IMG/VR virus record: IMGVR_UViG_3300045988_006903
Span: 1-18,172 of that record
From: a virus
Direction: 5' to 3' (one strand)
Length of the DNA stretch: 18,172 nucleotides
The position numbers and the translations under genes are program-made. Of this stretch, positions 1 to 18,172 are shown piece by piece. The notes beneath the pieces were generated by a model. That model saw only the letters and a program-made list of their open reading frames with translations. It made no database searches and was not told where the DNA came from. Position 1 is the first letter of the stretch, and every line of letters begins with the position of its first letter.

Positions 1-50
1 AAAAAGGAGGGGAGGGGCCCCAGCAGCTAACTCTTTTCCATAACCGCTCT

Positions 51-178
51 GTTGTGTGTTTGTGTTTTCTTTGGTCTTCTGTGTTTTTCATTGCTGTTGC
101 TGGTGGTCGTGTTGTGGTGGGTTGTTTTGTGTTTGGTTTTTTTGTGTGTTTTGGGTGTGTTGTTTTTTGTGGTGTGGT
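51..178 (+). repeat. Strand-asymmetric G+T tract inside the left ITR
   Basis: By hand count, 51..178 holds one A (position 90) and about 8 C on the + strand. 109..178 is 70 nt of G and T only. No ORF lies here. Confidence 0.9.
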
Positions 179-183
179 ATGAT
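175..183 (+). promoter_or_regulatory. Extended -10 promoter candidate (TGGTATGAT) for the ITR gene
   Basis: TGn plus TATGAT about 32 nt upstream of the ATG at 215. A GGAAGGAAG Shine-Dalgarno sequence lies at 201..209. It belongs to a recurring TGnTAnnAT family in this genome. Confidence 0.5.
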
Positions 184-214
184 GTGAATATCAACCGATA
201 GGAAGGAAGATAAA

Positions 215-415
215 ATGATTAGCAACAGCATCATTAAGAATTATGTCGAAGACTACGTCCTGAACAGTGACCAATTCGTCGATGAGTTTGACGTTGATGC
301 GATTGTCGAGAATCTGCATCATGTGGCTTTGGTCAATGATATGGTCATTGAGAAATATGATGATTGTGATTCGTTTCCGGCTGATGATTTTACGGAAGCG
401 TTTGAGGAGGCGTGA
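215..415 (+). CDS. ITR-encoded small acidic protein (66 aa), unknown function
   Basis: ATG with a strong SD (GGAAGGAAG). It has 11 Asp and 7 Glu against 2 Lys and 0 Arg. An identical protein is encoded at 17758..17958 (-). The only nucleotide difference is synonymous (GAG versus GAA). Confidence 0.75.
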   Translation: MISNSIIKNYVEDYVLNSDQFVDEFDVDAIVENLHHVALVNDMVIEKYDDCDSFPADDFTEAFEEA

Positions 416-416
416 C

Positions 417-485
417 ATGTTCGCCTCGGTGCTTGTTATTTGCGCGTGCGTTTTTGGTGTCGTTGTCGTTTTTGGCATGGTTTGA
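417..485 (+). CDS. Possible 22-aa hydrophobic peptide (MFASVLVICACVFGVVVVFGMV)
   Basis: The ATG at 417 is preceded by GAGGAGG at 404..410 with a 6-nt spacer. The peptide could form a single TM-like helix. It is very short, so the call is speculative. Confidence 0.25.
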   Translation: MFASVLVICACVFGVVVVFGMV

Positions 486-510
486 GCGTCTTTGGTCTGA
501 TAGGTGGTGA

Positions 511-519
511 TGTTATAAT
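511..519 (+). promoter_or_regulatory. Extended -10 promoter (TGTTATAAT)
   Basis: Exact TGnTATAAT. The ATG at 527 lies 7 nt past the hexamer with no SD, the geometry expected for a leaderless mRNA. Confidence 0.5.
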
Positions 520-526
520 GGTTGGC

Positions 527-673
527 ATGATTGTTGCCGTCTACGTTCTTTCCGTGCTGTTTCTTATAATGGCGGCTACGGTGTTTTGCGAACTGCCGCG
601 CAACGCGCGTGACGTTTTTTGTTTTTTGGTCATGCTTGGCGTGAGCGTGGCTATTGTATTGGTTTTTTTGTGA
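527..673 (+). CDS. Small membrane protein with two predicted TM helices
   Basis: This is the 3' part of ORF 440..673. MIVAVYVLSVLFLIMAATVF-CELPRNARD-VFCFLVMLGVSVAIVLVFL gives two hydrophobic segments split by a charged loop. The start is ambiguous (440, 518 or 527). Confidence 0.55.
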   Translation: MIVAVYVLSVLFLIMAATVFCELPRNARDVFCFLVMLGVSVAIVLVFL

Positions 674-685
674 AAGGGGTTTGAA

Positions 686-931
686 ATGGTTGAGAATGAT
701 AGGAAGATTGCCACGTTCCGCTCTCCGTTTAGGGGCGGTGACGTTGGACTATGGTATTGCGCCCACCGCAATGTGTACGAACTCCGGTATGATGTCCGAT
801 TTTATTCAATGGACGGATTGACTGATGCAGTTGCATTGACGCCGTATGACGCATGTGACTACGACCAAGTGGTTGATATTATCGTTGACGCTACCGACTT
901 GGCGCTTACTTCGCTTTTAGAAAGGAATTAG
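686..931 (+). CDS. Hypothetical early protein (81 aa)
   Basis: ORF with SD GAAAGGGG 6-7 nt upstream. It is tightly packed in a co-directional gene string. No recognisable motif. Confidence 0.6.
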   Translation: MVENDRKIATFRSPFRGGDVGLWYCAHRNVYELRYDVRFYSMDGLTDAVALTPYDACDYDQVVDIIVDATDLALTSLLERN

Positions 932-933
932 CC

Positions 934-1137: not shown

Positions 1138-1139
1138 TT

Positions 1140-1670: not shown

Positions 1671-1681
1671 GATAAGGTGGC

Positions 1682-2002: not shown

Positions 2003-2029
2003 TAATCCCTATAAGGAAAGGCAACGCTA

Positions 2030-2513: not shown

Positions 2514-3533
2514 ATGTTGCCGCCAGACTCACCCCCCGCCGTTTCCATCCTTGCGGCGAGGGGTGTTTCATACTCACAGGGGGGGGCCGTGGCAAAACGC
2601 AAAAACCGCCGACGCGCTGACAATCTGAAACGCAACGCCGCAATCAGGTCGGCACAGGTACGCCGAGAGCGAGCAGTTAGAGATTACAGTACCGGACGAC
2701 TCCCCAAGAAAATCACCGAAACGTTTTTAGGGAACCTCAGTGCCCAACAGCTTGAACAGGTAGCACGACGCGTCGGGCAGGAGTTCGGAGAGCAGCAGCA
2801 GGCTTTAAGGGCGCGAGATAATGAACCGTATCAGGTTGTCCCCGACGTTCATGTCACGAAACTTGACCGTGAGATGGCGTCGCGTCCGCTGATTATTGAC
2901 GCGGAAATTGCCGCCGCACCGCCGAAACGTCGGAAAACATTGCGGCAGCAGCAGCGCCGCAGAGTTGAGGCACGGCAGAAAATCAAGCGTGCTCAACAAT
3001 TCGAGGCGCTGAGCATGGCCCGCTATACCGTGGGTGAAATGCGTGAAATGGAACGTGCAGGCGAATCCCCGTTTGACGTGCTGGGCACTCACACGGTCGG
3101 CGGTTCGGCCCGCGATGAACTCATGCGAAGCCGTGCGAACGTGTTCGGCTCAGAGCGTGGAATAAGCCATGCACGCGCGATGATTCGAGAGGGGAGCCGT
3201 AGGAAACTTGAGCGAGAAATGCTTGAATACGCCGGACTTATTGGACGTGCGCCGTTACGCGCCGGAACTAGGCGTATTCCCGAGAACGAGGGCGTTTCGG
3301 ATTTTGATAAAGTCGCACAGCAACTTGAAGCATTCGATTTCAGCGTAGCTCAAAGATTTGCCGCTTTGTCGAACCGTCAAAAACGATGGCTGATAAACAA
3401 CACGAATTTCAGCGTTGTAGTGCGCGAGGCAACGTGGTATAATGATAAGGCACATAAATGGGAGACTAAAGCAGATGCAGGAGATGTAGAGACACGACTT
3501 GACGAATGGATGACTAGCGCAGCAAGACACTAA
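2514..3533 (+). CDS. Terminal protein (replication primer) candidate
   Basis: Sits directly upstream of the protein-primed polymerase, as phi29 gene 3 does. It is highly Arg/Lys-rich with an N-terminal KRKNRRRADNLKRN stretch. At 314-339 aa it is comparable to known TPs. The start is uncertain: ATG 2514, or GTG 2589 preceded by AGGGGGGG. Confidence 0.55.
   Translation: MLPPDSPPAVSILAARGVSYSQGGAVAKRKNRRRADNLKRNAAIRSAQVRRERAVRDYSTGRLPKKITETFLGNLSAQQLEQVARRVGQEFGEQQQALRARDNEPYQVVPDVHVTKLDREMASRPLIIDAEIAAAPPKRRKTLRQQQRRRVEARQKIKRAQQFEALSMARYTVGEMREMERAGESPFDVLGTHTVGGSARDELMRSRANVFGSERGISHARAMIREGSRRKLEREMLEYAGLIGRAPLRAGTRRIPENEGVSDFDKVAQQLEAFDFSVAQRFAALSNRQKRWLINNTNFSVVVREATWYNDKAHKWETKADAGDVETRLDEWMTSAARH
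2530..2565 (+). promoter_or_regulatory. GC-rich hairpin in the TP leader or 5' coding region
   Basis: CACCCCCCGCC at 2530..2540 pairs with GGCGAGGGGTG at 2555..2565. That is an 11-bp stem with one mismatch and a 14-nt loop, followed by TTTCA. It could be an attenuator or weak terminator after the SSB gene. Confidence 0.3.
3435..3443 (+). promoter_or_regulatory. Internal extended -10 (TGGTATAAT) upstream of the polymerase gene
   Basis: Exact TGnTATAAT inside the 3' end of the TP gene, about 100 nt before the polymerase ATG. Confidence 0.35.
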
Positions 3534-3547: not shown

Positions 3548-5008
3548 ATGCGAGAGCGTCGAACGGCGGCAACAGACGGCGCAACATTATTGACGGATGA
3601 CGGTATAACGCCATTGACGGCGAATGCAGTCATCCGATTGACCATGCTTGACCACCATACGCGCGTATGGTGCGCTCACGGATGGCAGGATATCAAGCCC
3701 ATAGCGGCTCAACTATTGAAACGACTGCCGTTGCAATCGAATCCGGCCAAGGATGGAGTTTGGGGCACGTTCAATATTCGCGGCCATTTCTACAATTTTC
3801 GCGTGCGTATGGGCGGCGTCACCGTGGATTTTCTGGACGTGCGCAACATCACACGCGACGACGGACTGAATGTTTCACGTGAAACATTTGGTGGGGCGGA
3901 TGACTTGGAAACCACGTGGAACATCGCGCGGGAATGCGACGCCCTGAATCTCAAGGGCATGACCATAGCGTCTATGGCAATGGGCGATTACGTCGGCGGA
4001 GATTACGCAGGATTCAAACGCCATTTCCCGCCATTGGATAAAGCGGAATATCATCGGATGCGCCCCGCATACTATGGAGCGATAGTGTACAGCAGACCGG
4101 GCGAATATCGGGATTGCCGGAGTTGGGATGTGAATAGTCTTTATCCGAGCATCATGCACGACTTCGCCATGCCCGTAGGTTCTCCCGTCTGGTATGAGGG
4201 AGAATATCATTATGACGCTGATTATCCGCTGCATATCGATGTTATCTCGTTCGACGCGCGACTGAAAACGGGAAAAACGGCGACACTCACAAACATCCTA
4301 CCCGTATGGGGATACGAGGGCGAACGTATGGACAGCACGCTAGGCGTCGTCACCATGCCGGTGACCGACGTGGATTGGCAAACCCTGACGGAAAACTATG
4401 ATGTCCATGTGTGGGAGTATATCGGCGGCTGGAAATTCCGTAAATCACATGGACTCTACTATAATTACGTTGATAAATGGTTTCACGTGAAACAAACCGC
4501 AACCGGCGAGCGTCGTCAAATGGCGAAACTATTGCTTAACTCGCTGGTGGGAAAATTCGGGGCCTCGCTTTACCGGCCAATGCTTCACCCGAAGTCTTCC
4601 GGCGATGGCGGCGTGGATTTTACTGTGGACAAACCCGAGTCGGCCAACTCACTCGCATGGCTACCGACCGCCGCATATGTCAACGCCTACGGTCGGCAAA
4701 TATTGTCCCGCGCGATGAACGCGAACGCCGGTCGTGTGCTCTACGCCGATACAGACGGCATGATATTGGAGGGGTCAGATGCGCCCGCAGATATCGAAAC
4801 GGATAATAGGAAACTGGGCGCGTGGAAAAACGACCATACCTATGAAAAACTCCGTATCCTCGGCAATCGCAAATATTGCGGCGTAGAGACAGATGGCAGC
4901 ACGGTGATGCGGTTGAGTGGCGTGCATCGGGCTGCCCCTATCCCCTACGACGATTTTCTGCCGAGGTCACGCCATGTCAATGATGACGGCTGTTTTTTTG
5001 TGCTATAA
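3548..5008 (+). CDS. Family-B DNA polymerase, protein-primed (phi29-like)
   Basis: Motif A WDVNSLYPS (nt 4127..), motif B KLLLNSLVGKFG (4526..), motif C YADTDG (4742..) and KxY NRKYCG (4871..). Long stretches are colinear with phi29 DNAP, e.g. EGEYHYDADYPLHI versus EGKYVWDEDYPLHI, and RKLGAWKNDHTYEK versus KKLGYWAHESTFKR. SD is AAGGA. Confidence 0.95.
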   Translation: MRERRTAATDGATLLTDDGITPLTANAVIRLTMLDHHTRVWCAHGWQDIKPIAAQLLKRLPLQSNPAKDGVWGTFNIRGHFYNFRVRMGGVTVDFLDVRNITRDDGLNVSRETFGGADDLETTWNIARECDALNLKGMTIASMAMGDYVGGDYAGFKRHFPPLDKAEYHRMRPAYYGAIVYSRPGEYRDCRSWDVNSLYPSIMHDFAMPVGSPVWYEGEYHYDADYPLHIDVISFDARLKTGKTATLTNILPVWGYEGERMDSTLGVVTMPVTDVDWQTLTENYDVHVWEYIGGWKFRKSHGLYYNYVDKWFHVKQTATGERRQMAKLLLNSLVGKFGASLYRPMLHPKSSGDGGVDFTVDKPESANSLAWLPTAAYVNAYGRQILSRAMNANAGRVLYADTDGMILEGSDAPADIETDNRKLGAWKNDHTYEKLRILGNRKYCGVETDGSTVMRLSGVHRAAPIPYDDFLPRSRHVNDDGCFFVL

Positions 5009-5009
5009 T
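5001..5009 (+). promoter_or_regulatory. Extended -10 promoter (TGCTATAAT) overlapping the polymerase stop codon
   Basis: Exact TGnTATAAT. The TAA stop at 5006..5008 lies inside the hexamer. It would start a transcript near 5016-5017 that reads into the late (structural) genes. Confidence 0.55.
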
Positions 5010-5015
5010 GACTGG

Positions 5016-5175
5016 TAGCGGGGTGTGCGTCCCAAGCCGATTCGGTGGCCCGACCGGTAGGCAATCGGTAAGGCGATTCGGTCGGATGTAGACGTGCGTA
5101 GCCAACGCCCATCGACGGCGAGGGAACCCGCACAGCCTAGCAATTCGGCACGGCAGCGTGATTGCTGCCGTGCCA
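5016..5175 (+). ncRNA. Structured ~160-nt leader or candidate small RNA (pRNA-like?)
   Basis: No plausible ORF. Helix CCGACCG (5050..5056) pairs with CGGTCGG (5079..5085), enclosing AATCG/CGATT. A possible long-range pairing joins GTGCG..TCCC (about 5024..5033) to GGGA..CGCAC (about 5120..5133). A perfect 11-bp hairpin GGCACGGCAGC/GCTGCCGTGCC spans 5147..5174 with no U-tract. Folded by eye only. Confidence 0.2.
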
Positions 5176-5194
5176 TCTACCTTAAGAGGTGATT

Positions 5195-5536
5195 ATGGAC
5201 GACACCGAAAATGATGACAAGCCGGACACCACGCCCGACACCGAACCGGACGTGACCGCCGACGACAATACGCCGAACCCGGAGCCTGAAACGCAGGACG
5301 ATAATGAACCTGAGGACGCGGGCGACGACAAGAACGCCGACATGTCCGACCGGTTGAGCGCATTGGAGGCGACTGTGGCGGAATTGTCTAAAACCGTCGA
5401 AGCGATGCGCGACGCCGCCGCCGACCATGTGCTGAACGATGGCCCCGACGACAATGCGACGCCGGAGTCGGCTGAAATGACCGACGACGACTATAACGGC
5501 ACCTACAGTACTTTCGACGACCTATACGAAGACTGA
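5195..5536 (+). CDS. Scaffolding protein candidate (very acidic, with a coiled-coil segment)
   Basis: The ORF track starts at GTG 5189; the ATG at 5195 follows AAGAGG. The N-terminus is D/E/T/P-rich low complexity and the centre is helical (LSALEATVAELSKTVEAMRDAAA). It lies directly upstream of the capsid gene, as phi29 gene 7 does. Confidence 0.6.
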   Translation: MDDTENDDKPDTTPDTEPDVTADDNTPNPEPETQDDNEPEDAGDDKNADMSDRLSALEATVAELSKTVEAMRDAAADHVLNDGPDDNATPESAEMTDDDYNGTYSTFDDLYED

Positions 5537-5558
5537 CATTTAGGAAGGAATGATCATC

Positions 5559-7289
5559 ATGGCAACCACCCCAGCGGTGACGCCGAAGCAGCAGCTTCGA
5601 CCGCTCGCCGAATTTAACAACGCTCAGATTCTGAACATGATTCGCAACGAGGCGTCGCCGGAATACCAGCGGCGAATGCCTTCGGCTACTCAGATGAACA
5701 TGGACCGCCAGATGGCTACGCTTATGTCGTCTACCCAGTTGAAGAACGAATTTTATTCGGCACTGGTGAACCGTATCGGCGGCACTTATGTGAACACGTG
5801 GCGTTGGAATAATCCTCTCAGCGTTTTCCAACGTGCATCGCAGGCGTATGGCGACACGTGGCAGGAAATCGCCGTAGGCATGCCGCTTGCGCAGGTCTAT
5901 GACCCTAATGCGGAATATCTCGGCGCGGATAATTTCCGCAAGTGGAAAATCGACGTGGATTCGCTCTATCATCGTCTGGACTTCGCTCACTGGTATCCTG
6001 CGACCACGGATGACAAGACGCTTCAGCGTGCCTTCACTTCCGAAAACGGCTTGGCCTCGCTTACCTCGCAGATTCTCACATCCTGCTACAATGCAGCCGA
6101 GGTTGACCTTTTCGAAGCTCTATGCCACCAGTTCGTCGAATATGCGAAGCTCGGCGGGTATTGGCGAGTCCATATGGACAATGACCTCAACAATATGGGT
6201 AGTTCGGAGACGGACGCCCGTGACATGCTGCGCCAGATTCGCGCGTGGGCTGACACGCTTAAATTCGTGTCCACCAAGTACAACGCCCGTCACATGCCGA
6301 CTTTCGCGCGTCCGGACGAGCTCGTGCTGTTCTGCTCTCCGGAAGTCAAGTCGGCGCTTGACGTGCAGGGCCTCGCCACGGTATTCCAGCGCACGGACGC
6401 CGAGCCGACCATCGACCGGATTATCGTCATTCCTCAAGACAGGTTCGGCATGGATGGCGTACAGGCCATCCTGACGACCGACAAATTCCTGATTGACATT
6501 CCGGTCATTAACGAAATGACTCAGCAGACCAATCCGGTCAACATCAATTCGGTCAACCATTATCTGCATGTCCAGCACATCATCTCAGTGTCCGGCTTCG
6601 CTCCGGCTGTCATGTTCTGGACGGGCGCCGGTTCCACCGCGAACGTGGTGGCCCCTACCGGCACGCAGGCTCAGGCGCCGACGTTCCAGCTCAAGCTCGC
6701 CATGTATGGTGGCGGTTCGGAAACCCCGAGCGATGTGGCGCGTGGTGGCGCGGTGCAGGTCACCGCCGATACGACCATCACTAACGAAGGTGCCGCTACG
6801 TTCCGTTCGGATGCGGTCGAGTATCGTATCGGTGATACTGCTAAGCCGAAGAGCGATTACACATATATCTCGCCTACCGGCGTGCTGGTGGTCGGTCTCG
6901 ACGAACCGAACACCACCATCCCGATTACCGCAACCGCCTTGTACACGAATCCGGCGACGCCGGAAGTGCCGGGCACCGTGTCCGCAGCTCTGGACGTGCC
7001 AGTGGTCGGTGATGGTGTTATCGGATTCAATCCGTCCATCATCGCGTCCATTGCCGTGACCGTTCCGAGCGTGACTGTTGACCATACGGCGCAGGCGACC
7101 GCAGTGGCGACCATGATTGACGGACGAACCGCCGACGTGACCGCACAGGCCGCATGGACGTCCGGCACTCCGGCGAACGCCACCGTATCCGAATCGGGCG
7201 TGGTGACTGGCGTCAAGGAAGGCAGCTCTGATATCACCGGCACGCTGTTCGGCGTGTCTGGAAAAAAGAGCGTGACCGTGACCGCGTGA
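5559..7289 (+). CDS. Major capsid protein with C-terminal Ig-like (Big_2-type) domains
   Basis: Largest ORF after the scaffold gene. AGGAAGG at 5542..5548 favours the ATG at 5559 over 5550. The last ~80 aa (..VTVPSVTVDHTAQATAVATMIDGRTADVTAQAAWTSGTPANATVSESGVVTGVKEGSSDITGTLFGVSGKKSVTVTA) form a textbook Big_2 pattern, as in phi29 gp8. A second beta-rich Ig-like module precedes it (about 6660..6990). Confidence 0.85.
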   Translation: MATTPAVTPKQQLRPLAEFNNAQILNMIRNEASPEYQRRMPSATQMNMDRQMATLMSSTQLKNEFYSALVNRIGGTYVNTWRWNNPLSVFQRASQAYGDTWQEIAVGMPLAQVYDPNAEYLGADNFRKWKIDVDSLYHRLDFAHWYPATTDDKTLQRAFTSENGLASLTSQILTSCYNAAEVDLFEALCHQFVEYAKLGGYWRVHMDNDLNNMGSSETDARDMLRQIRAWADTLKFVSTKYNARHMPTFARPDELVLFCSPEVKSALDVQGLATVFQRTDAEPTIDRIIVIPQDRFGMDGVQAILTTDKFLIDIPVINEMTQQTNPVNINSVNHYLHVQHIISVSGFAPAVMFWTGAGSTANVVAPTGTQAQAPTFQLKLAMYGGGSETPSDVARGGAVQVTADTTITNEGAATFRSDAVEYRIGDTAKPKSDYTYISPTGVLVVGLDEPNTTIPITATALYTNPATPEVPGTVSAALDVPVVGDGVIGFNPSIIASIAVTVPSVTVDHTAQATAVATMIDGRTADVTAQAAWTSGTPANATVSESGVVTGVKEGSSDITGTLFGVSGKKSVTVTA

Positions 7290-7381: not shown

Positions 7382-7397
7382 GCCATACCGGAGGATA

Positions 7398-11476: not shown

Positions 11477-12120
11477 AGGTAATCATGGTTACTATTAACG
11501 CTTTGATTCCACGGCAACGCTTGTTTGACGGGGTGCCCACGTCCGTACCGTTCACCTACCGGGACGGTTTGACGACATTGCAGTTGATTGAATGCCTGAA
11601 GCATAATCTAGACACGCTTCAGTGCGATCTTGGCAGGTTGGAGAGAGCCACCACCGACCTCGCGACATCTGTAGACAAGGCTCTAGCGAATACCGTTGCA
11701 CAGCTCAATCAGGACATGACCGCGTTACGCGCGGAATTGCTCTCACTGATTCATGAGATGGAGCAGCAAGGCTCGGCAGTGTCCCCAGTCTACGGCATTA
11801 CGCAACCGCTCGGGCAAGTGTTAGGCGGCATGTACGATAATTCGCGTAATCATGGACTGTTCTGGGGTGATTATGATAACATGGAGTTGACCGCGCAGGA
11901 ATACGACGGGCTTACCCTCAACGCCCGCGAATACGACTTGAAGGCGACCGCCGTCGATAATTGCGTCCCCGGCGATTTTCCCGGACGCGCACAATTCCCC
12001 TACGGTAGGAGTATGCCCGAGAATCCACCCGCCGACATGTCGTTTATCACGCAATCGGAAGCGGACGCACGCTATGTCGAACGCAACCCATCCGCAGATA
12101 ATTTCGACAAGAAAGGATAA
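11473..12120 (+). CDS. Tail / appendage-associated structural protein (coiled coil)
   Basis: Its start overlaps the previous stop (ATGA), with an alternative ATG at 11485. A heptad-like helical region (LDTLQCDLGRLERATTDLATSVDKALANTVAQLNQDMTALRAELLSLIHEME) is present. It lies between the collar and fibre genes. Function is inferred from context. Confidence 0.45.
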   Translation: MKVIMVTINALIPRQRLFDGVPTSVPFTYRDGLTTLQLIECLKHNLDTLQCDLGRLERATTDLATSVDKALANTVAQLNQDMTALRAELLSLIHEMEQQGSAVSPVYGITQPLGQVLGGMYDNSRNHGLFWGDYDNMELTAQEYDGLTLNAREYDLKATAVDNCVPGDFPGRAQFPYGRSMPENPPADMSFITQSEADARYVERNPSADNFDKKG

Positions 12121-12125: not shown

Positions 12126-12545
12126 ATGACCGCAACCAACAAGACAGCGAATTACGAACTCAGCCAGTTCGTCGGCTCCGACCGCCCCACATGGCTCGGG
12201 GATTATAACAGCGATATGGCGAAAATCGACGCGCAGATGAAGCGGAACGCGGACGACATCGCGTCGGCAACAGCAGGCGGTCTCACCTCGGTACACCATA
12301 CCACCGACCTCACAGGTAACGGTACGTCCGGCTCCCCGCTGGGCGTGGCAAGCACTATCGCCAAGAAAACCGACATCCCGGACGTGAGCGGATTCGCCAC
12401 CACCTCCGCCCTCACCTCGGGGCTTGCAGGCAAGGTCGATAAAACCGCCTCGCAGCCCGGAACGCTCGGATTGACGGCGACCGAACTCGATTCGATGTAC
12501 AAGGACGCGGACGGCATCGTCCGTATTGGCAGAGCCAACGCCTAG
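12126..12545 (+). CDS. Short tail fibre / appendage protein
   Basis: SD AAAGGA. The N-terminal module NYELSQFVGSDRPTWLGDYNSDMAKIDAQM is paralogous to the N-terminus of the next gene. A fibre-like Gly/Ser/Thr-rich segment (TDLTGNGTSGSPLGVAS) follows. Confidence 0.6.
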   Translation: MTATNKTANYELSQFVGSDRPTWLGDYNSDMAKIDAQMKRNADDIASATAGGLTSVHHTTDLTGNGTSGSPLGVASTIAKKTDIPDVSGFATTSALTSGLAGKVDKTASQPGTLGLTATELDSMYKDADGIVRIGRANA

Positions 12546-12561
12546 AAAAAGGAGAATAAGA

Positions 12562-14001
12562 ATGTCTACCACACAGCATACCGGCCATTACAATCTGCCG
12601 ACGTTTGGCGACAATCCAAACGACCGCCCGTCGTGGCGCGGTGACTTCACCGACGCGATGACGAAAATCGACAATCAGATGTACGCCAACGCCACCAATA
12701 TCACCACGGCGACGGCTGCGGCGAACAACGCGAAAACGGCGGCGGACGCGGCCAAGGAATCGGCTGACATTGCGTCGGAGCTTGCGCAGACCAACAAGAC
12801 CGATATTGCCGAGCTGAATGACTATTTCAGCAAGCTCGGCGTCACATCTTCCGCGTCCGCGCAGAATCTGAAGGACACCATTAATGGCAAGGCGGAGAAC
12901 ACCGCACTTCAGGCGCTTCAGGGAACCGTGTCGGGCTTGTCTGACAGCCTTGAAAGCAAGGCAAATACCAGTGAAGTCTACTCTAAGGCTCAGACGGACA
13001 CGACGTTTACCAAGCAGGGCGGATACTCGGGGACGGCGCAGCAGATTGTAAGTCTTGTCAACGGCAAGGCCGATTTATCCGACGTCTACACTCGCCAGCA
13101 GGCGGACGACAAATTTGCGCCTAACCCCGATAATCAAAACATTTTGGTAGCTATTGGCGATAGCTATTTCGAGGGATTCAGGACGACGACACCAACAACT
13201 GATTCGATGATAGTCGTCGCCAGTCAAATGCTTGGACTGACTTGTCATAATTTTGCAGTCGGAGCAGCTGGGTTCATCGCTGGGGGAGCATCTACATTCT
13301 CCAAACAGCTTGATACGGCAAACACTCAAGTCGCGGATAAAACCAAGGTCAAGTACGTCGTGATTGGTGGCGGCAGGAATGACGATTGGAACACGCTAAC
13401 CGAATCCGACGTTAAAACCACACTGCAAAAAGCTGTCACCCTATTCCCGTACAGTAAGATTGTGTTTATTCCGATGATGTGGGATAACACTTGGCCATCT
13501 TGGCATCAAGGAATCGCATACGGCAAAATGGTAGCGGGCGGTCGTGGCGTTCCTCAAGTCAGTGTGATTCGCGACGCTCCGACGTGGGGGCTGTTTTGGG
13601 ATGGCGGTATGACCGACATTCACCCCAACACAGAAGGAAGTCGCGTCTATGCGCAATACATCGCCTCGGCTTGCGAAAACGGACACGCAAAACGCTCGGA
13701 AATCCTTAAAATGAACGTAAGTGGATTTACGGGGGACGCTGAGGTTATCATAGACGGACTTGATGTTTCGCTCAATGGCCGAGGCAATAAGACGCAATGG
13801 AATCAGCAAGAGTTCGCCACTATCCCCGGAGCCAGTGCGTTCGGCGCATGGGATGCGCTTATCGGTTGGATGGACTCAGGACATTTTCTAAAACTGAAGT
13901 TCACAGGTTCAGCCCTGAGCGTCATTGACGTGCTGGATGGAAACGGACAGGCCGGCAACATTTCATTCAGCAACACAATGTCGGTCTTTGCTCACAACTA
14001 G
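12562..14001 (+). CDS. Tail fibre / appendage with a C-terminal SGNH (GDSL-type) esterase domain
   Basis: The ATG at 12562 follows AAGGAGA (ORF track 12526). It carries the shared N-terminal anchor module and repeated K(A)xxSxVYxxxQxDxxF shaft motifs. SGNH blocks: I VAIGDSY (13156..), III VIGGGRNDD (13366..), V DIHPN (13615..). Confidence 0.8.
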   Translation: MSTTQHTGHYNLPTFGDNPNDRPSWRGDFTDAMTKIDNQMYANATNITTATAAANNAKTAADAAKESADIASELAQTNKTDIAELNDYFSKLGVTSSASAQNLKDTINGKAENTALQALQGTVSGLSDSLESKANTSEVYSKAQTDTTFTKQGGYSGTAQQIVSLVNGKADLSDVYTRQQADDKFAPNPDNQNILVAIGDSYFEGFRTTTPTTDSMIVVASQMLGLTCHNFAVGAAGFIAGGASTFSKQLDTANTQVADKTKVKYVVIGGGRNDDWNTLTESDVKTTLQKAVTLFPYSKIVFIPMMWDNTWPSWHQGIAYGKMVAGGRGVPQVSVIRDAPTWGLFWDGGMTDIHPNTEGSRVYAQYIASACENGHAKRSEILKMNVSGFTGDAEVIIDGLDVSLNGRGNKTQWNQQEFATIPGASAFGAWDALIGWMDSGHFLKLKFTGSALSVIDVLDGNGQAGNISFSNTMSVFAHN

Positions 14002-14072: not shown

Positions 14073-15293
14073 ATGAGTATGGTAGACGTACAAGCGTGGT
14101 TGGAACGAACCCAAAACCAATTTTGGGATATGGACGGGGCTTATGGTGCCCAATGTTGGGACCTGTGGGCAAAATACTGCATGGACTGCTATAATCTGTC
14201 GTTGGGGGACTGTATTACCCCGACCGGATACGCCGAGGGGAATTACACTCACTTTCCTACTACAGCGGCAGTGGGGCGCGTGTTCGAGAAAAAAAGCGCC
14301 GACTATACGCCCGTAATGGGAGACGTTGTATTTTGGACGTTCGGGAGTCGAATCTACACAGGCAGTCACGTGGCTATCGTCTGGGGTGGCGTCCAAGGGG
14401 ATAATATCGATGTGCTGACACAAAACCCGACGCCCGCGGTCCACCAATCGCTACCGCTCATGAAGGGTTCGCAGCTACTCGGCTATCTGCATCCCACGGC
14501 ACTACCGGAACCTCCCGAATCTGGGTACAACCCCACTGGGGGCAATAATCCGGGCGTGAGTGTAGACGGCGATATATCCACGTGGATTCAGATGCAGGGC
14601 GATAACCTCATATATCACAGCGGCTCGGGCACAACATCATCACAAGCCATTTTCTACAAGGCGAGCGCCCAGACATGGATATACCGTGGCGGCAAAGGTC
14701 AGCCGAACGCCGACCAAGGACAGGGCACGCCAAGCGTGGGCGACGGGGAGAGTTCATACGCGCTCTACGTTATTGGCACCGTTGAATCATCATTGCGCTG
14801 GGATGCAGTCGAATCAAATAATCAGGGTATCGGCATCGCACAATGGTCATTCGGCAGACGCTTACAGGTGTTGGACGCCATGAAGGCGGTTGACGCCGAG
14901 GGGTATAAAGCGTTTGCCGCTGCCGCGCCAAATATCGCCACGCTTATGGAGTCAGGCGGCACGTTTGACAGGGCAATGACTAGTAGCGAGGTCGTGGCGT
15001 TTCAGACGTGGGCGCGGCGCACGGAATCACGACAGGGACAGCGGGACCAATTCGCCAAGGATTACGAGGGCTACCCGCAAACGTATGATGATGCGAAAAT
15101 GCAGATACTATGGACATGCGCATATCATCAAAGTCCGGCAGGAGCGTTGGACGTGCCGCATTCTTCATCGCTCACGCAACTGTATAACAATATCCTCAAT
15201 ACACCCCCATTCGGGCCATACGGGACACGCTACAATACCGCCTATTCGCTGCTGAATGTGTGGGACGGGTCTAGTGCGTCACCGAACTTTTAG
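14073..15293 (+). CDS. Virion-associated peptidoglycan hydrolase: N-terminal CHAP peptidase plus C-terminal tail-lysozyme-like domain
   Basis: CHAP motifs are DGAYGAQCWDLW (Cys codon 14154..14156) and GSHVAIVW (His codon 14367..14369). The C-terminal half has GTVESS....ESNNQGIGIAQWSFGRRLQVL, resembling the phage tail lysozyme family. Its position corresponds to phi29 gp13. No SD is present; a possible leaderless start at ATG 14079 lies behind TGGTACCAT. Confidence 0.8.
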   Translation: MSMVDVQAWLERTQNQFWDMDGAYGAQCWDLWAKYCMDCYNLSLGDCITPTGYAEGNYTHFPTTAAVGRVFEKKSADYTPVMGDVVFWTFGSRIYTGSHVAIVWGGVQGDNIDVLTQNPTPAVHQSLPLMKGSQLLGYLHPTALPEPPESGYNPTGGNNPGVSVDGDISTWIQMQGDNLIYHSGSGTTSSQAIFYKASAQTWIYRGGKGQPNADQGQGTPSVGDGESSYALYVIGTVESSLRWDAVESNNQGIGIAQWSFGRRLQVLDAMKAVDAEGYKAFAAAAPNIATLMESGGTFDRAMTSSEVVAFQTWARRTESRQGQRDQFAKDYEGYPQTYDDAKMQILWTCAYHQSPAGALDVPHSSSLTQLYNNILNTPPFGPYGTRYNTAYSLLNVWDGSSASPNF

Positions 15294-15326: not shown

Positions 15327-15338
15327 ATCATTATTGTA

Positions 15339-15347
15339 TGGTAGAAT
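15339..15347 (+). promoter_or_regulatory. Extended -10 promoter candidate (TGGTAGAAT) for the packaging ATPase
   Basis: TGn plus TAGAAT, then 7 nt, then ATG 15355 with no SD. This is the same leaderless geometry seen at 527 and 9738. Confidence 0.45.
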
Positions 15348-15354
15348 GGATATT

Positions 15355-16452
15355 ATGGAGAGACTGTTAGCGGAAGACGATTATTACGATTATGGGCGCG
15401 TGTTGTCCTATCACGCGCCTTGGATGTTCGTAATCGGAGCACGCGGCCTCGGTAAAACTTATGGTGCCAAAAAATTGGTAATCGGTGACTGGATTAAGAA
15501 ACGATGGCAGTTCATTTATCTTCGCCGGACAGCCGAGGAGCAGAAGAATAAAGGCACGTGGTTTGCGGATATCGCGGAGCAATATCCAGAACTAGAGTTT
15601 AGGATATCCGGCAGTCAGGCCGAATGCCACTGGACAGATGACAGGGACGCAACCACCGACAAGCATGGCAAGAAACGCCCGACATGGCACATCATGGGAT
15701 ATTTTATCGCCCTATCGCAGGCTGGACAGGTGAAATCAGTTGCCTACCCCAGAGTACGAACGATTATCTTCGACGAAATATTCCCCGATAATATGCGATA
15801 CCTTGGCGGAGAAGTCACGGCACTTGAGGAATTTTACAACACGGTTGACCGTTGGAATGACCGAGTCCGCGTTATCATGTGCAGCAATGCCGTAACGTTG
15901 GCTAATCCATATTTCAGCGCGTTTGATATCAACCTAAAACCGCAGCTAGACAATCACACACAATATCAGCGATATTGCGATGGGTTTATTATGGTGGAAT
16001 TAGCCGATTACGGCGGGTTCAGCACAAAGGTTGCCACATCCAAATTCGGCACGTTCCTACGTAAATATGATGAGAATTATGCGAATTATGCAATCGACAA
16101 CGATTTTAGAGATAATGCCAATGCTCTCATTAGTGATTTTAATAACGCCGGTTATGCGTTCTCATTAAGAACCACCGAATACGGTATTTTCAACATCTAT
16201 CAGCAATTAAGCGATACCGACGAAATCTTATATATCATCACAAAAAAACAGCCTAAAATCACAAGAAATTTTACATTTGACTATAGACTGGTCGATAACG
16301 ATTGCATAATGCTCAAACGTTCGGACGACATGACACAGAAAATATTGAACGCCTATCGCGTCGGTAGATTACGATTCGAAACCCCGCAAATTAAGGCGGA
16401 GTTCAGTATGATTCTTGGCGGCTTATTGCAGCAATCAGGCATAAGAAAGTGA
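15355..16452 (+). CDS. DNA encapsidation (packaging) ATPase, phi29 gp16-like
   Basis: Walker A is VIGARGLGKTY (15436..15459) and Walker B is RTIIFDEI (15763..15777). The size is about 365 aa. The ORF track begins at TTG 15334, with alternative ATGs at 15346 and 15355. Confidence 0.9.
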   Translation: MERLLAEDDYYDYGRVLSYHAPWMFVIGARGLGKTYGAKKLVIGDWIKKRWQFIYLRRTAEEQKNKGTWFADIAEQYPELEFRISGSQAECHWTDDRDATTDKHGKKRPTWHIMGYFIALSQAGQVKSVAYPRVRTIIFDEIFPDNMRYLGGEVTALEEFYNTVDRWNDRVRVIMCSNAVTLANPYFSAFDINLKPQLDNHTQYQRYCDGFIMVELADYGGFSTKVATSKFGTFLRKYDENYANYAIDNDFRDNANALISDFNNAGYAFSLRTTEYGIFNIYQQLSDTDEILYIITKKQPKITRNFTFDYRLVDNDCIMLKRSDDMTQKILNAYRVGRLRFETPQIKAEFSMILGGLLQQSGIRK

Positions 16453-16459
16453 GGAATAT

Positions 16460-16825
16460 ATGCCAACCCATGAATTAATTGTTATCGGCATCGTGTTTCT
16501 ATTGGTGCTTATTGACTACGTAACAGGCGTGGTCAACGCAATCATGCACGGCGAATTGTCCAGCGAGAAAATGCGGAGGGGGCTTGGTCACAAGTTCGCG
16601 TACTTGGCGATTATTTGCGTCGCGTTAATCGTAGAATACGGTTCGGATTACATTGACTTGGGAATCGAACTACCGGTATTCATGCCGGTATGCGTAGGCA
16701 TCTGCCTAATTGAAATTACCTCGATTATGGAGAATTGCGTAAAAATCAATCCAGAATTAAGCGGCTCAAACATTCTGGACATTTTCAATATCGAGAGGAA
16801 GGAAAACAATGATAAAGAGGATTGA
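16460..16825 (+). CDS. Holin (phage_holin_4_1-like)
   Basis: SD GAGGAA. It has TM segments with the characteristic LIDYVTGVVNAIMHGELSSEKMRRGLGHKFAYL pattern and a charged C-terminal tail (RKENNDKED). It lies directly upstream of the endolysin. Confidence 0.8.
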   Translation: MPTHELIVIGIVFLLVLIDYVTGVVNAIMHGELSSEKMRRGLGHKFAYLAIICVALIVEYGSDYIDLGIELPVFMPVCVGICLIEITSIMENCVKINPELSGSNILDIFNIERKENNDKED

Positions 16826-16855
16826 AACAATCGCATACAGTGCGAAGGCAGAATA

Positions 16856-17701
16856 ATGGACGGCGTGAAATGGATAGGTTCACCGAACCACTACAATGGA
16901 CGGAACGGATACGCCGTGACCCACATAACACTACACATCATGGTCGGCCACCTTGCGGGAACAGACAGCGTATTCTTAAATGCCGGTTCGCAGGCAAGCG
17001 CACATTACGGCATTGGCGCAGACGGGACTGTACATCAATACGTAAGCGAGAGTGACGGCAGTTACAGCGACGCCAATTTCGCGTCAAACAACTCGACAAT
17101 CAGCATAGAGCACGAAGGCGGCATGGCCGGAATACCATGTACCAAGTCGTGCATGGACGCTTCCGCCCGACTATGCGCCGATATTGCGCGACGTCAAGGA
17201 TGGACGCGACTATGGCACGACGGACTCAACGGCAACATCTGGCTACACCGCGAAGTGCCCGGCACCGACCACTACGGGTGCCCAGACAGGACGGTAAACG
17301 GACTTGATGTAAACTACGTCATTGACAAAGCAAACCAAATACTAGGAAGGGACGACGAAGTGTCAGCAGCAGACGTAACCACAGGACTCTACCAAACCAA
17401 AGGCAACGACGGACGAAACTTATTCGACGGAGTTATACAGACACGGAACGAGCTGAAAGACAGGGCCATAGATGCGCTATATCAAGCCAAAGGCAACGAC
17501 GGACGAAATCTATTCGACGGAGTTATACAAGCACGCTGGGATATTGCCGAACTGAAGACCATGCTCACAGCACAAACAGCAGCCATCGAAGCACTCAGCA
17601 AGACAGTAGGGGCTAACCCAGAAACCATAGCCCAGACAGTGCAGAACGCTGTTAAAAAGAAACTAGACAGCCTGCATATCACCGTAACAGACAAACAGTA
17701 A
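16856..17701 (+). CDS. Endolysin: N-acetylmuramoyl-L-alanine amidase (Amidase_2/PGRP type) with an unusual repeat-containing C-terminus
   Basis: SD GAAGG. Motifs are ITLHIMVGHL, SAHYGIGADGTVHQYV, NNSTISIEHEG and HREVPGTDHYGCPD, which look like the Zn-ligand His/His/Cys pattern. The C-terminal ~110 aa holds two 20-aa repeats and a helical tail. No LysM, SH3 or CW-binding motif is recognisable. Confidence 0.9.
   Translation: MDGVKWIGSPNHYNGRNGYAVTHITLHIMVGHLAGTDSVFLNAGSQASAHYGIGADGTVHQYVSESDGSYSDANFASNNSTISIEHEGGMAGIPCTKSCMDASARLCADIARRQGWTRLWHDGLNGNIWLHREVPGTDHYGCPDRTVNGLDVNYVIDKANQILGRDDEVSAADVTTGLYQTKGNDGRNLFDGVIQTRNELKDRAIDALYQAKGNDGRNLFDGVIQARWDIAELKTMLTAQTAAIEALSKTVGANPETIAQTVQNAVKKKLDSLHITVTDKQ
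17387..17536 (+). repeat. In-frame tandem duplication (90-nt period) in the endolysin C-terminus
   Basis: 17387..17446 encodes LYQTKGNDGRNLFDGVIQTR and 17477..17536 encodes LYQAKGNDGRNLFDGVIQAR. The DNA is nearly identical, including a shared CCAAAGGCAACGACGGACGAAA core. Confidence 0.85.
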
Positions 17702-17710
17702 GAGAGACAA

Positions 17711-17750
17711 AGTAAAAGCCCCTAGGTTTATCGACCTAGGGGCTTTTACT
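17711..17750. terminator. Bidirectional terminator between the late operon and the right ITR gene
   Basis: Perfect 16-bp stem AGTAAAAGCCCCTAGG/CCTAGGGGCTTTTACT with an 8-nt loop. T-rich sequence is at or after the stem on both strands. It sits between convergent stop codons at 17701 and 17758. Confidence 0.75.
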
Positions 17751-17757
17751 TTATCTC

Positions 17758-17958
17758 TCACGCTTCCTCAAACGCTTCCGTAAAATCATCAGCCGGAAAC
17801 GAATCACAATCATCATATTTCTCAATGACCATATCATTGACCAAAGCCACATGATGCAGATTCTCGACAATCGCATCAACGTCAAACTCATCGACGAATT
17901 GGTCACTGTTCAGGACGTAGTCTTCGACATAATTCTTAATGATGCTGTTGCTAATCAT
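17758..17958 (-). CDS. Second copy of the ITR-encoded small acidic protein (66 aa)
   Basis: The protein is identical to that of 215..415. It is transcribed inward from the right end, and the promoter and SD are duplicated with the ITR. Confidence 0.75.
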   Translation of the reverse strand: MISNSIIKNYVEDYVLNSDQFVDEFDVDAIVENLHHVALVNDMVIEKYDDCDSFPADDFTEAFEEA

Positions 17959-17989
17959 TTTATCTTCCTTCCTATCGGTTGATATTCAC

Positions 17990-17998
17990 ATCATACCA
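17990..17998 (-). promoter_or_regulatory. Mirror copy of the ITR promoter candidate (TGGTATGAT on the - strand)
   Basis: Reverse complement of 175..183. Confidence 0.5.
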
Positions 17999-18122
17999 CA
18001 CCACAAAAAACAACACACCCAAAACACACAAAAAAACCAAACACAAAACAACCCACCACAACACGACCACCAGCAACAGCAATGAAAAACACAGAAGACC
18101 AAAGAAAACACAAACACACAAC
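17995..18122 (-). repeat. Mirror copy of the G+T tract in the right ITR
   Basis: Exact reverse complement of 51..178, reading as C+A on the + strand. Confidence 0.9.
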
Positions 18123-18172
18123 AGAGCGGTTATGGAAAAGAGTTAGCTGCTGGGGCCCCTCCCCTCCTTTTT

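Follow-up and report, generated by a model that had tools for sequence, protein, structure and literature searches.

Genome organization and host

The stretch of DNA analyzed here (18,172 bp, hereafter the window) is bounded by inverted terminal repeats (ITRs), and all its large genes lie on the + strand. Behind the left repeat there are five early ORFs (519-673, hydrophobic; 686-931; 934-1137; 1134-1670; 1682-2002), for which profile searches gave no family matches; positions 514-760 have 81% DNA identity to Bifidobacterium phage BP1. The replication genes follow, i.e., SSB, a terminal-protein (TP) candidate and PolB. The virion genes begin with a scaffold candidate (5189-5536), an acidic protein of 115 aa assigned by its position just upstream of the gene for the major capsid protein (5550-7289; Phi29_MCP, E = 5.7e-86), which has a C-terminal Ig-like domain with a weak Big_2 match. 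Next to it are the gp9-like tail knob (7368-9725; phi29_gp9_C, E = 3.5e-10, and Caud_tail_N; phrog_2248, E = 6e-78), the gp10-like connector or upper collar (9738-10688; Phage_connector, E = 5.5e-42) and the gp11-like lower collar or adaptor (10685-11476; phrog_3225, E = 1.3e-29, and phrog_5472). Three putative tail or appendage proteins (11473-12120, 12126-12545 and 12526-14001) were assigned mainly by position, the last one with a GDSL/SGNH hydrolase domain (Lipase_GDSL_2, E = 2.8e-6, short of the curated cut-off). The gp13 analogue, a tail-associated cell-wall hydrolase (14073-15293) matching endolysin PHROGs, combines a CHAP domain above its cut-off (28.4 versus 26 bits) with a lysozyme-like one below it (Phage_lysozyme2, 22.7 versus 28.2). 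The gp16-like DNA packaging ATPase (15334-16452; Podovirus_Gp16, E = 1.9e-42), a holin (16460-16825; phrog_199) and an endolysin (16856-17701), with Amidase_2 (E = 5e-16) followed by a duplicated C-terminal motif, complete the + strand series.

An earlier note on this DNA had described a full phi29-type gene set, and the profile searches confirm it for SSB, PolB, capsid, knob, connector, lower collar, gp16 ATPase, holin and amidase, while the TP and scaffold candidates had no family match in them. The window is very likely the complete linear dsDNA genome of a lytic phi29-like podophage, with 415-bp ITRs at its physical ends. Its size lies within the range of small linear dsDNA genomes that have inverted repeats at their physical termini (about 11-30 kb), and the phi29-type virion and packaging module is present. 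Tectiviridae and other tailless protein-primed elements are excluded by the phi29-type capsid, connector and tail.

The phage very probably infects Bifidobacterium. The closest isolates are Bifidobacterium phages (capsid identity, 36-42%), and the endolysin homologues found in bacterial genomes came from Bifidobacterium in five of five cases. It belongs to an uncultivated group of Bifidobacterium phages, one that is frequent among public viral contigs. The genus Badaztecvirus was considered and excluded, with a capsid identity of 41-42% and a whole-window megablast that finds only 247 nt, in BP1.

Between the PolB and scaffold genes, downstream of a putative promoter (TGCTATAAT, 5001-5009), a candidate conserved structured RNA (5016-5180, + strand) has a minimum free energy of -87.4 kcal/mol (z = -4.66) and 58 pairs, 8 of them covarying. 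In BD811P1/2 and BP1 its hairpin loop GUGAUUG is retained while the stems that carry it are unrelated. No Rfam match to pRNA was found in the window. This conserved, covarying RNA may matter more than the length of the ITR.

Replication genes

The phi29-type SSB (2030-2467, + strand) was recognized by Phi29_Phage_SSB (E = 1.7e-14) and phrog_6243. The next gene (2514-3533, + strand) is a candidate for the terminal protein by its position between SSB and PolB, its charge and its size. The product is basic (pI 10.7), predicted to be all-helical and 314-339 aa long; the true start is probably the GTG at 2589, giving 314 aa, and most homologues have a called length of 314-315 aa. The annotated TP of Av-1 also sits between SSB and PolB. 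The candidate is homologous to the genes at the same position in BadAztec1 and BD811P1 (about 30% identity), and no similarity was detected to proteins of Av-1, phi29 or Anjali. A comparison of its fold with PDB and BFVD gave no match outside its own family, the best TP-labelled hit having E = 0.34. TPs are undetectable by homology beyond close relatives (PMC11476376). In a phi29-like protein-primed phage, a protein covalently attached at the 5' ends would be expected.

PolB (3548-5008, + strand; 486 aa) is of the protein-primed type (DNA_pol_B_2, E = 7.6e-34, residues 132-341). It aligns continuously to residues 206-501 of the phi29 DNAP, spanning motifs A, B and C together with the intervening segments, where the TPR1 and TPR2 insertions lie in published phi29 structures. 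Characterized protein-primed polymerases carry exonuclease motifs; in contrast, the DxE glutamate, ExoII and ExoIII were all absent from the alignment for the window, BadAztec1, BD811P1 and BP1. With the N-terminal 154 aa, no Pfam match emerged at E <= 10; the control, Anjali, gives 1.6e-9. The lack of recognizable exonuclease motifs in the PolB of this clade is another feature that may be more important than ITR length.

Inverted terminal repeats

The two arms (1-415 and 17758-18172) are reverse complements with a single mismatch, as found both with a repeat finder and by base-by-base comparison, and the first and last bases of the window belong to the repeat, just as the earlier note had it. 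An inverted match of 415 nt is far longer than chance would produce; the second-longest inverted pair of the window has 41 nt at 71%. The mismatch, at position 409 (G on the left, A on the right), falls in the penultimate codon of a 66-aa ORF (ORF66, 215-415) and is synonymous (GAG versus GAA, both Glu). The repeat boundary coincides exactly with the TGA stop of this ORF, and from position 416 on, the arm-to-arm identity collapses. While the arms differ at only 1 of 415 positions, the same region differs between genomes by about 5-70%, depending on position.

From the end inward, the ITR is built of a conserved terminus of ~28 nt, a T/G-rich tract of ~145 nt that is poor in A, an extended -10 promoter with its RBS, and the complete gene for an acidic 66-aa protein. 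The terminus (AAAAAGGAGGGGAGGGGCCCCAGCAGCT, 1-28, + strand; mirrored at 18145-18172) is the putative replication origin. Over its nt 6-25, identity to the window is 95% in a set of 19 distinct arms that includes the window's own, and the initial run of five A's would permit sliding-back. There is a GGGGCCCC palindrome at positions 14-21. The tract (31-174, + strand; mirrored at 17999-18142 as a C/A-rich tract) consists, at 45-174, of 0.8% A, 7.7% C, 33.8% G and 57.7% T. In the relatives it measures about 130-250 nt, mostly with 1-8% A and 51-61% T, i.e., the composition is kept while sequence and length vary. Its RNA folding is not unusual (z = +0.78). The predicted promoter (TGGTATGAT, 175-183, + strand; mirrored at 17990-17998, - strand) lies within the repeat and is followed by the RBS (GGAAGGAAG, 201-209). 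The motif TGNTATNAT is found 15 times in the window versus 2.2 expected (0 of 200 shuffles), in most cases a short distance upstream of + strand genes, and the promoter motif is kept in the ITR arms of the relatives.

ITR lengths among close relatives lie between 205 and about 470 bp, perhaps 500. In most of them the repeat ends at the first ATG, with a different small gene at each end, and Cp-1 and Mycoplasma phage P1 follow this pattern too; the same gene was present at both ends in about 6 of the 41 relatives with a detectable ITR. Gene-bearing ITRs were seen in the window, L020, L053, L033, L034 and L035. The ITR of the window is probably longer than usual only because the same small early gene follows the end-borne promoter at both ends; with the same cassette filling both slots, the repeat reaches from the start codon on to the stop codon of the gene. 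The earlier note had regarded a repeat with a complete gene and its promoter as unusual, citing phi29 (6 bp) and Cp-1 (236 bp), lengths that we checked as correct. This holds for the whole gene, which is a minority state, but not for the promoter, which is the rule in the lineage, since P1, Cp-1 and the close relatives also carry ITR promoters. Once all of these are examined, the long ITR is no surprise.

A proposed gene slot behind the ITR promoter

The left copy of ORF66 (215-415, + strand) comes first after the ITR promoter, and the right copy (17758-17958, - strand) is read inward. Its product has a pI of 4.05, and the homologues form 119 clusters (about 47-89% identity), nearly all of 66 aa and with 20 invariant columns; judging by this sequence conservation, ORF66 is a real gene. 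Structure prediction gave four helices (one of five models was confident), and the model had no PDB match. From its position, acidity and variability we would guess at a role in early host takeover or anti-defence. A hairpin (17702-17759) with 26-nt arms, 96% complementary, and a 6-nt loop separates the endolysin stop from the right ORF66. It was the best terminator-like site found (20 pairs) and probably acts as a bidirectional terminator.

Close relatives have at least 15 unrelated families of small ORFs behind the ITR promoter, and this diversity occurs among phages with a portal protein identity of >= 93%. Five of the slot families occupy the left end of certain genomes and the right end of others. 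The ORF66 homologue itself is found only at the left end in L014, only at the right end in L013, and in both arms of L053 and L020. It is possible, and we propose it only tentatively, that the ITR is, beyond a replication origin, an expression platform usable from either end, in which both termini would have one and the same promoter recognized by the host and, behind it, a slot filled by recombination with interchangeable small immediate-early genes. If so, the presence of ORF66 in both slots would lead to its being expressed first whichever end enters, and at double dosage, as expected for an anti-defence or host-takeover factor. With the terminus, ITR layout and promoter motif known, the variable end-adjacent genes can also be picked as candidates for such functions.

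Physical ends and alternative explanations

Public contigs of the relatives end 0-5 nt from the same 5'-AAAAAGGAGGGG terminus. Among 20 contig ends with the terminal motif in independent IMG/VR relatives, 16 terminate within 0-5 nt of the common terminus, 3 have TruSeq adapters joined straight to AAAAGGAGGGG and 1 continues into other sequence. The adapter (...CTCTTCCGATCT) is fused directly to AAAAGGAGGGG at both ends of L011 and in L058, and because it abuts the terminus in these two contigs, the repeats lie at physical termini. The number of terminal A's would be four or five, with five in the window and L010 and four in the adapter-joined ends. The left junction between ITR and unique sequence recurs in L020, L014 and L053 (75-83% identity) and the right one in L053 and L033 (81-84%). 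The relatives' contig termini and these junctions back the claim of a complete, linear phi29-type genome with the repeats at its true ends.

Amplified viromes do contain inverted chimeras, and several related public contigs have adapter remnants or lopsided ends, so that imperfect assemblies exist in this group. Still, an origin of the whole ITR as an assembly artefact, be it a fold-back or chimeric read product or one end copied onto the other by the assembler, is extremely unlikely. The one-base difference means that the arms were assembled separately, many independent contigs share the terminus, and the cultured phages BadAztec1 and BadAargau2 carry ITRs of 259 and 227 bp. The fold-back chimera, named beforehand as a possible refutation, is ruled out by the recurrence of both junctions in relatives whose identity there has dropped to 75-84%. 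Somewhat less far-fetched, yet still improbable, is that only the core ITR (about 1-214) is real and that ORF66 is truly at one end only, the assembler having extended the repeat through it. Single-copy arrangements do exist (L014 on the left, L013 on the right), and a mixed sample could be mis-assembled in this way. However, the sole mismatch falls inside ORF66 and therefore marks two distinct copies, the order endolysin-hairpin-inverted ORF66 is found in L053 and L033 at 81-84% identity, and L053 and L020 have the gene in both arms.

A linear genome with ITRs could also replicate its ends by other means than a protein primer, for instance hairpin telomeres, to which the negative homology search for a TP, the lack of a detectable exonuclease domain in PolB and the GGGGCCCC palindrome near the terminus (14-21) would lend some weight. 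We consider this very unlikely given that the PolB domain is clearly of the DNA_pol_B_2 or phi29 type, with a match covering the segments with the protein-priming insertions, and that the gp16 ATPase, connector, SSB and gene order are all phi29-type. Furthermore, the ends open with a homopolymer run, like those of phi29 and Cp-1, and the ligation of adapters to free ends speaks against closed hairpins, while TPs are known to escape homology detection outside close relatives (PMC11476376).

In the protein-primed phi29-like phage that we favor, replication would start at each 3'-TTTTT end, with the terminal protein priming the phage PolB, and the identical terminal bases would let sliding-back occur, as known from phi29, Cp-1 and PRD1. 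Sliding-back requires terminal nucleotide reiteration (PMC5175343, PMC6266182, PMC7695010), i.e., at least two identical nucleotides, and we found 5' AAAAA in the window and four to five A's in the relatives. Host RNA polymerase would fire the ITR promoter at both ends during DNA entry, and because of this firing, the first gene at each end would be immediate-early. The left ORF66 would then be the first gene transcribed behind the left-end promoter, before the rightward genes, and the right copy would be read inward, stopping at the hairpin (17702-17759) that faces the endolysin gene. Sequence patterns alone suggest that the arms are kept near-identical by replication-linked copying between ends, and the position behind the ITR promoter would be a swappable slot for small genes.

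The window provides a complete reference genome with true termini for an uncultivated group whose cultured relatives are few and distant. Some deposited genomes of relatives appear to be without real ends, and the exact terminus makes the correction of truncated assemblies practical. With the terminus, ITR layout and promoter motif known, so is the design of origins for in vitro protein-primed replication.

Comparison with known phages

The named Bifidobacterium relatives are BadAztec1/2/4 and BadAargau2 (genus Badaztecvirus), BD811P1-3 and BP1, and their gene order matches that of the window throughout: early small ORFs, SSB, TP-position gene, short PolB and a non-coding gap, then scaffold, capsid, knob, connector, collar and fibres, and finally hydrolase, ATPase, holin, lysin and, at the opposite terminus, one inward-facing small ORF. 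The ITRs of BadAztec1 and BadAargau2 end at the start codon of the first gene, which differs between the two ends of each genome, and no isolate with an ITR in its deposited ends has a whole gene inside the repeat, unlike the window. DNA similarity is almost nil, with megablast coverage of 1% of the window, and together with the low capsid identity, this places the isolates in a different genus or higher taxon. The deposited ends of BD811P and BP1 look truncated or lopsided.

Among more distant phages, Streptococcus phage Cp-1 resembles the window in having nearly all genes on one strand and a few inward-facing ORFs at the right end. Its ITR is exact over 236 bp and extends to about 364 bp with <=5% mismatches, the 5' end being AAAG. 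The mapped early promoters are mirrored, with annotated -10 elements 339-344 from each end that put the same early promoter at both ends, and the first ORFs begin 376 and 375 nt from the ends. There is no complete gene inside the Cp-1 repeat. The Cp-1 polymerase retains the exonuclease motifs, unlike that of the window, and neither its host nor its sequence is related. Mycoplasma phage P1 (11.7 kb) has a 350-bp ITR that encloses an annotated promoter, with a different first gene starting from the repeat boundary at each end; it is transcribed inward from both ends and has no gene inside the repeat, a layout unlike that of the window. Bacillus phage phi29 and the Salasmaviridae differ in their short ITRs (5-16 bp versus 415 bp), early genes on the opposite strand, recognizable pRNA and TP, and a proofreading polymerase. 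They share with the window homologous SSB, polymerase domain, capsid, knob, connector, collar and gp16 ATPase, and a 5' end that opens with a run of A's.

Genome ends and terminal repeats

The earlier note had described a genome bounded by inverted terminal repeats (ITRs), and this was borne out at the level of single bases. The repeat finder placed the two arms at 1-415 and 17758-18172, so that both ends of the window fall on the ITR, and base-by-base comparison confirmed that the first and last 415 nt are reverse complements with one mismatch, at position 409 (G on the left, A on the right). The mismatch lies in the penultimate codon of ORF66, an ORF of 66 codons inside the repeat (215-415, with its minus-strand mirror at 17758-17958), and leaves the protein unchanged, as GAG and GAA both code for Glu. 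The stop codon of ORF66 is the exact inner boundary of the repeat: when the window is compared with its own reverse complement, arm identity is gone from position 416. The next inverted pairs detected in the window by the repeat finder are all ≤41 nt.

The terminal motif of the window was looked for at both ends of every related IMG/VR contig, and AAAAAGGAGGGG was present at 20 of these ends. Sixteen of them stop 0 to 5 nt before the motif (the upstream string being empty, A, AA, AAAA, AAAAA or TAAAA). At three more, both ends of contig L011 and one of L058, the Illumina TruSeq adapter ...GTGCTCTTCCGATCT is joined straight to AAAAGGAGGGGAGGG, and one (L069) runs on into other sequence. Since the adapter was ligated to the same base in independent libraries, the termini are physical DNA ends. 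Assembly chimeras at the ITR junctions could also be excluded, because these junctions have diverged in relatives together with the rest of the genome. The right one (endolysin 3' end, hairpin and inverted ORF66) is found in L053 and L033 at 81-84% identity and the left ITR/unique junction in L020, L014 and L053 at 75-83%. The deposited records of the cultured Bifidobacterium phages BadAztec1 and BadAargau2 likewise show perfect ITRs, of 259 and 227 bp. Taken with the gene set, the ends give good support to a complete protein-primed genome of the phi29 type, with the terminal protein (TP) as a putative member.

Several public contigs of this group keep TruSeq or Nextera adapter at their ends (e.g., L011 at 1-34, L058 at 1-30, L042 at 1-25 and the ends of L035 and L037), and many others among L008-L087 break off within the ITR or show lopsided arms. 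For BD811P1/2 and BP1, too, the genomes as deposited appear to be without their true termini.

Anatomy of the ITR

The best conserved part of the ITR is the terminus, AAAAAGGAGGGGAGGGGCCCCAGCAGCT (1-28); over nt 6-25, identity to the window is 95% among 19 distinct arms. In the window (1-21, AAAAAGGAGGGGAGGGGCCCC), Cp-1 (1-20, AAAGCATGTACTCCCCCACC) and phi29 (1-20, AAAGTAAGCCCCCACCC) alike, the terminal A-run has a homopolymer block of G or C within about 10 nt after it, the same strand carrying the G-rich version.

The terminus is separated from the ITR promoter by a strand-asymmetric tract (31-174, mirror 17999-18142). Over positions 45-174 (130 nt) it contains 0.8% A, 7.7% C, 33.8% G and 57.7% T, i.e., it is nearly free of A on the 5'-to-3' strand. 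Comparison with the arms of L010, L014, L021, L047 and L053 indicated that this composition is kept (mostly 1-8% A and 51-61% T), while the sequence is variable (about 50% identity at nt 86-125) and the length ranges from about 130 to 250 nt. By eye, the T-runs recur at a spacing near multiples of 10 nt. Bent DNA or a protein-binding site at the origin are possible roles. As RNA, the tract folds no better than its shuffles. A packaging RNA (pRNA) inside the ITR was rejected, as 1-214 on either strand folds no better than shuffled sequence (z = +0.78).

The tract is followed by an extended -10 promoter, TGGTATGAT (175-183), a ribosome-binding site, GGAAGGAAG (201-209), and the ATG of ORF66 at 215. 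The promoter motif and its flanking sequence are conserved in the arms of relatives. The pattern TGNTATNAT has 15 copies in the window for 2.2 expected (0 of 200 shuffles), 12 of them on the + strand, and most stand directly upstream of genes (511, 874, 1975, 2487, 3435, 5001, 7287 and 9723). A sigma-70 two-hexamer scan of the window missed the ITR promoter; the extended -10 pattern was informative instead. At the other end, a hairpin with 26-nt arms (17702-17759) is located 3' of the inward-read right ORF66 and also ends the endolysin gene. The left ITR is directly followed by a hydrophobic ORF of 22 codons (418-486) and then by a 51-codon ORF of two-helix membrane type (519-673), the latter preceded by a second promoter of the extended -10 type (TGTTATAAT at 511). 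The hydrophobic codons of these two ORFs account for part of the high G/T skew seen over the first 1 kb.

A common core with probably exchangeable gene cassettes

To place the 415-bp repeat among phages of this type, ITR lengths were taken from the phage records themselves and from papers. They go from 6 bp in phi29, 5-16 bp in its Bacillus relatives and 16 bp in Anjali to 25-30 bp in Clostridium phages, 52 bp in the Av-1 record and 61 bp in Enterococcus phage Idefix, and then to 227 bp in BadAargau2, 236 bp in Cp-1 (exact; about 364 bp with ≤5% mismatches), 259 bp in BadAztec1 and 350 bp in Mycoplasma phage P1. Close relatives with an anchored terminus have ITRs of 205, 234, 239, 296-335, 440 or 472 bp, and two contigs whose ends are truncated or bear adapter point to one of about 500 bp.

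In most relatives the repeat ends no more than a few bases from the start codon of the first ORF, and different small ORFs are driven at the two ends. Repeat end and first start are at 239/239 in L010, 229/236 in L021, 369/374 in L011, 259/256 in BadAztec1 and 227/231 in BadAargau2. Similarly, P1 has an annotated promoter inside the ITR and a different gene beginning at the ITR edge at each end, and Cp-1 has annotated -10 elements 339-344 from both ends, its first ORFs beginning 376 and 375 nt from them. A credible whole gene within the repeat was found in the window, L020 and L053 (ORF66), L033 (ORF66, in a truncated contig), L034 (77 aa) and L035 (96 aa). Among the 41 relatives in which an ITR could be detected (42 loci with the window included), about 6 thus have a gene-bearing repeat; ORFs called within the T/G-rich tract of relatives (e.g., L003 10-225 and L074 54-203) were judged spurious and excluded from this count. 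ORF66 is also found at a single end, only on the left in L014 and only on the right in L013. When 57 promoter-proximal ORFs from 55 arms were clustered, they fell into 15 unrelated families, five of which occur at the left or the right end depending on the genome.

From this pattern among relatives, the 415 bp of the window ITR are the common core of ~214 bp plus one cassette that is the same at both ends. The earlier suggestion that the ITR is unusual therefore holds in part: it is among the longest for the phage type and a repeat that includes a whole gene is the minority state, but it adds no more than a simple step to the layout known from Cp-1, P1 and the Bifidobacterium phages, and the window's version recurs in several public contigs.

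The two arms are nearly identical within a genome, and identity between genomes is much lower. The ITR/cassette pattern would be consistent with cassettes being swapped between ends and between genomes, the arms then being homogenised via replication-linked copying. TP-primed initiation at an internal template position followed by sliding-back is established for phi29, Cp-1 and PRD1 (PMC5175343; PMC6266182), and by analogy with these systems the TP would prime at an internal T within the 3'-TTTTT end, with dAMP as the expected linked nucleotide, and then slide back. From their position, both copies of ORF66 would be immediate-early transcripts of the host RNA polymerase.

Judged from its sequence, ORF66 is a real gene. 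Its homologues form 119 clusters with roughly 47-89% identity, nearly all of 66 aa, with 20 invariant columns. The protein is very acidic (18 Asp+Glu for 2 Lys+Arg, pI 4.05). No match was found in Pfam or PHROGs, and the predicted structure (pLDDT 85.9 in the best model, about 55 in the other four) matched no PDB fold. A relationship to p56 of phi29 was discarded, as the profiles are unrelated. That it acts as a DNA mimic would be a guess.

Gene content and relatives

All the large ORFs are on the + strand, and searches against Pfam and PHROGs identified most of the phi29-type gene set that had been expected from the sequence alone. It comprises a phi29-type SSB (2030-2467; Phi29_Phage_SSB, 1.7e-14), a DNA_pol_B_2 polymerase (PolB, 3548-5008; 7.6e-34), a capsid protein with an Ig-like tail (5550-7289; Phi29_MCP, 5.7e-86), a gp9-type tail knob (7368-9725; phrog_2248, 6e-78), the gp10 connector (9738-10688; 5.5e-42), the lower collar (10685-11476; phrog_3225, 1.3e-29), a gp16 ATPase (15334-16452; 1.9e-42), a holin (16460-16825; phrog_199) and an Amidase_2 endolysin (16856-17701; 5e-16). 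A fibre-like protein (12526-14001) has a GDSL hydrolase domain below the curated cut-off, and a hydrolase (14073-15293) has a CHAP domain above its cut-off and a lysozyme-like domain below. The scaffold (5189-5536) and TP (2514-3533) candidates had no family match in either database. No tRNAs were found in the window.

Megablast of the whole window against 50,697 phage records gave a single match of 247 nt, to Bifidobacterium phage BP1. The capsid matched 216 records, the closest being those of Bifidobacterium phages (41-42% identity to BadAztec/BadAargau and 36-37% to BD811P1-3/BP1, all with the same gene order as the window), followed by Curtobacterium and Arthrobacter phages, the remainder including phages of Bacillus, Clostridium and other hosts. 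The endolysin had five homologues among representative bacterial genomes, all five in Bifidobacterium species. On sequence divergence, the window is apart from the cultured phages at the genus level or above. A search with the portal protein recovered 80 IMG/VR loci with 93-99% identity, most of 17-19 kb, so the window belongs to a well-sampled uncultivated group.

We infer that the ORF between SSB and PolB codes for the TP. It is basic (pI 10.7), with an all-helical AlphaFold model (pLDDT 72.6), and is homologous to the genes at the same position in BadAztec1 (E = 2e-24) and BD811P1 (E = 9e-20). The GTG at 2589 is its likely start, given that most homologues have been called with 314-315 aa. 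Tyr284, which is invariant and placed in a predicted beta-hairpin, would be a speculative candidate for the DNA-linking residue. It showed no similarity to the Av-1 TP by BLASTP, nor to the Av-1 TP, phi29 gp3 or Anjali gp6 by hhalign. No PDB chain was matched, either by profile search or by the fold of the model, and in BFVD the model retrieved its own family only, the first TP-labelled match having E = 0.34. Such failures are to be expected and are no argument against the assignment, since in a published survey the TP of Nf, a close relative of phi29, was the only one that HHpred connected to the phi29 TP (PMC11476376).

A polymerase that may lack proofreading

PolB has 486 aa, its profile matches start only at about residue 132, and it aligns with residues 206-501 of the phi29 DNA polymerase. 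We aligned the enzymes of the window, BadAztec1, BD811P1 and BP1 with those of phi29, Cp-1, Av-1, Anjali and Reje. The four polymerases from Bifidobacterium phages are without the ExoI glutamate (DFET is replaced by DGAT, DGKT or DG-T), the ExoII motif is absent, there is a deletion of about 25 residues at ExoIII, and the C-terminus is shortened. Their N-terminal 154 aa matched no Pfam model at E <= 10; with the N-terminus of the Anjali enzyme as a control, the exonuclease part of DNA_pol_B_2 was matched at 1.6e-9. PolB may thus be a naturally proofreading-deficient protein-primed polymerase.

A candidate structured RNA downstream of PolB

The 180-nt gap that separates PolB from the scaffold gene (5001-5188) opens with a conserved promoter, TGCTATAAT (5001-5009), and has a candidate RNA with a strong predicted fold (minimum free energy -87.4 kcal/mol; z = -4.66, 0 of 200 shuffles). 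Across the window and 66 distinct relatives, identity per column is 89%. The consensus has 58 pairs, eight of them with compensatory changes, and half of these eight are in the terminal hairpin (e.g., CG to UA in 32 sequences and AU to GC in 28). A long 5'/3' helix leads to a three-way junction, and there is a separate 12-bp hairpin. In BD811P1/2 and BP1 the same gap holds a hairpin with the identical loop GUGAUUG on unrelated stems, with a T-run and a promoter downstream of it, in that order. The arrangement in BadAztec and BadAargau is similar, with another loop. A covariance model of the 5016-5180 RNA gave no match in the distant relatives with default filters. With filters off the matches were weak (best E = 0.0013), and in each of the five genomes one of them lay in the PolB-scaffold gap and on the coding strand, which is suggestive of homology. 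Rfam had no match for the gap RNA and no pRNA match anywhere in the window. The gap RNA could be the packaging RNA of this lineage, a late-operon leader or a terminator-linked element.

Repeats within structural and lysis genes

Three internal similarities were also observed. The endolysin C-terminus contains a 59-nt direct repeat (17387-17535, 88% identity, spacing 90 nt) encoding a duplicated motif of ~30 aa (LYQTKGNDGRNLFDGVIQTR and LYQAKGNDGRNLFDGVIQAR), which is probably cell-wall-binding. A 44-nt direct repeat with 82% identity (11042-11253) lies in a Ser/Thr/Asp-rich low-complexity insert of the lower collar gene. Finally, the adjacent tail-fibre-like genes 12126-12545 and 12526-14001 have alike N-terminal segments (...YELSQFVGSDRPTWLGDYNSDMAKIDAQM and ...YNLPTFGDNPNDRPSWRGDFTDAMTKIDNQM), which suggests two appendage proteins, either stacked or used as alternatives, that attach through a shared domain.
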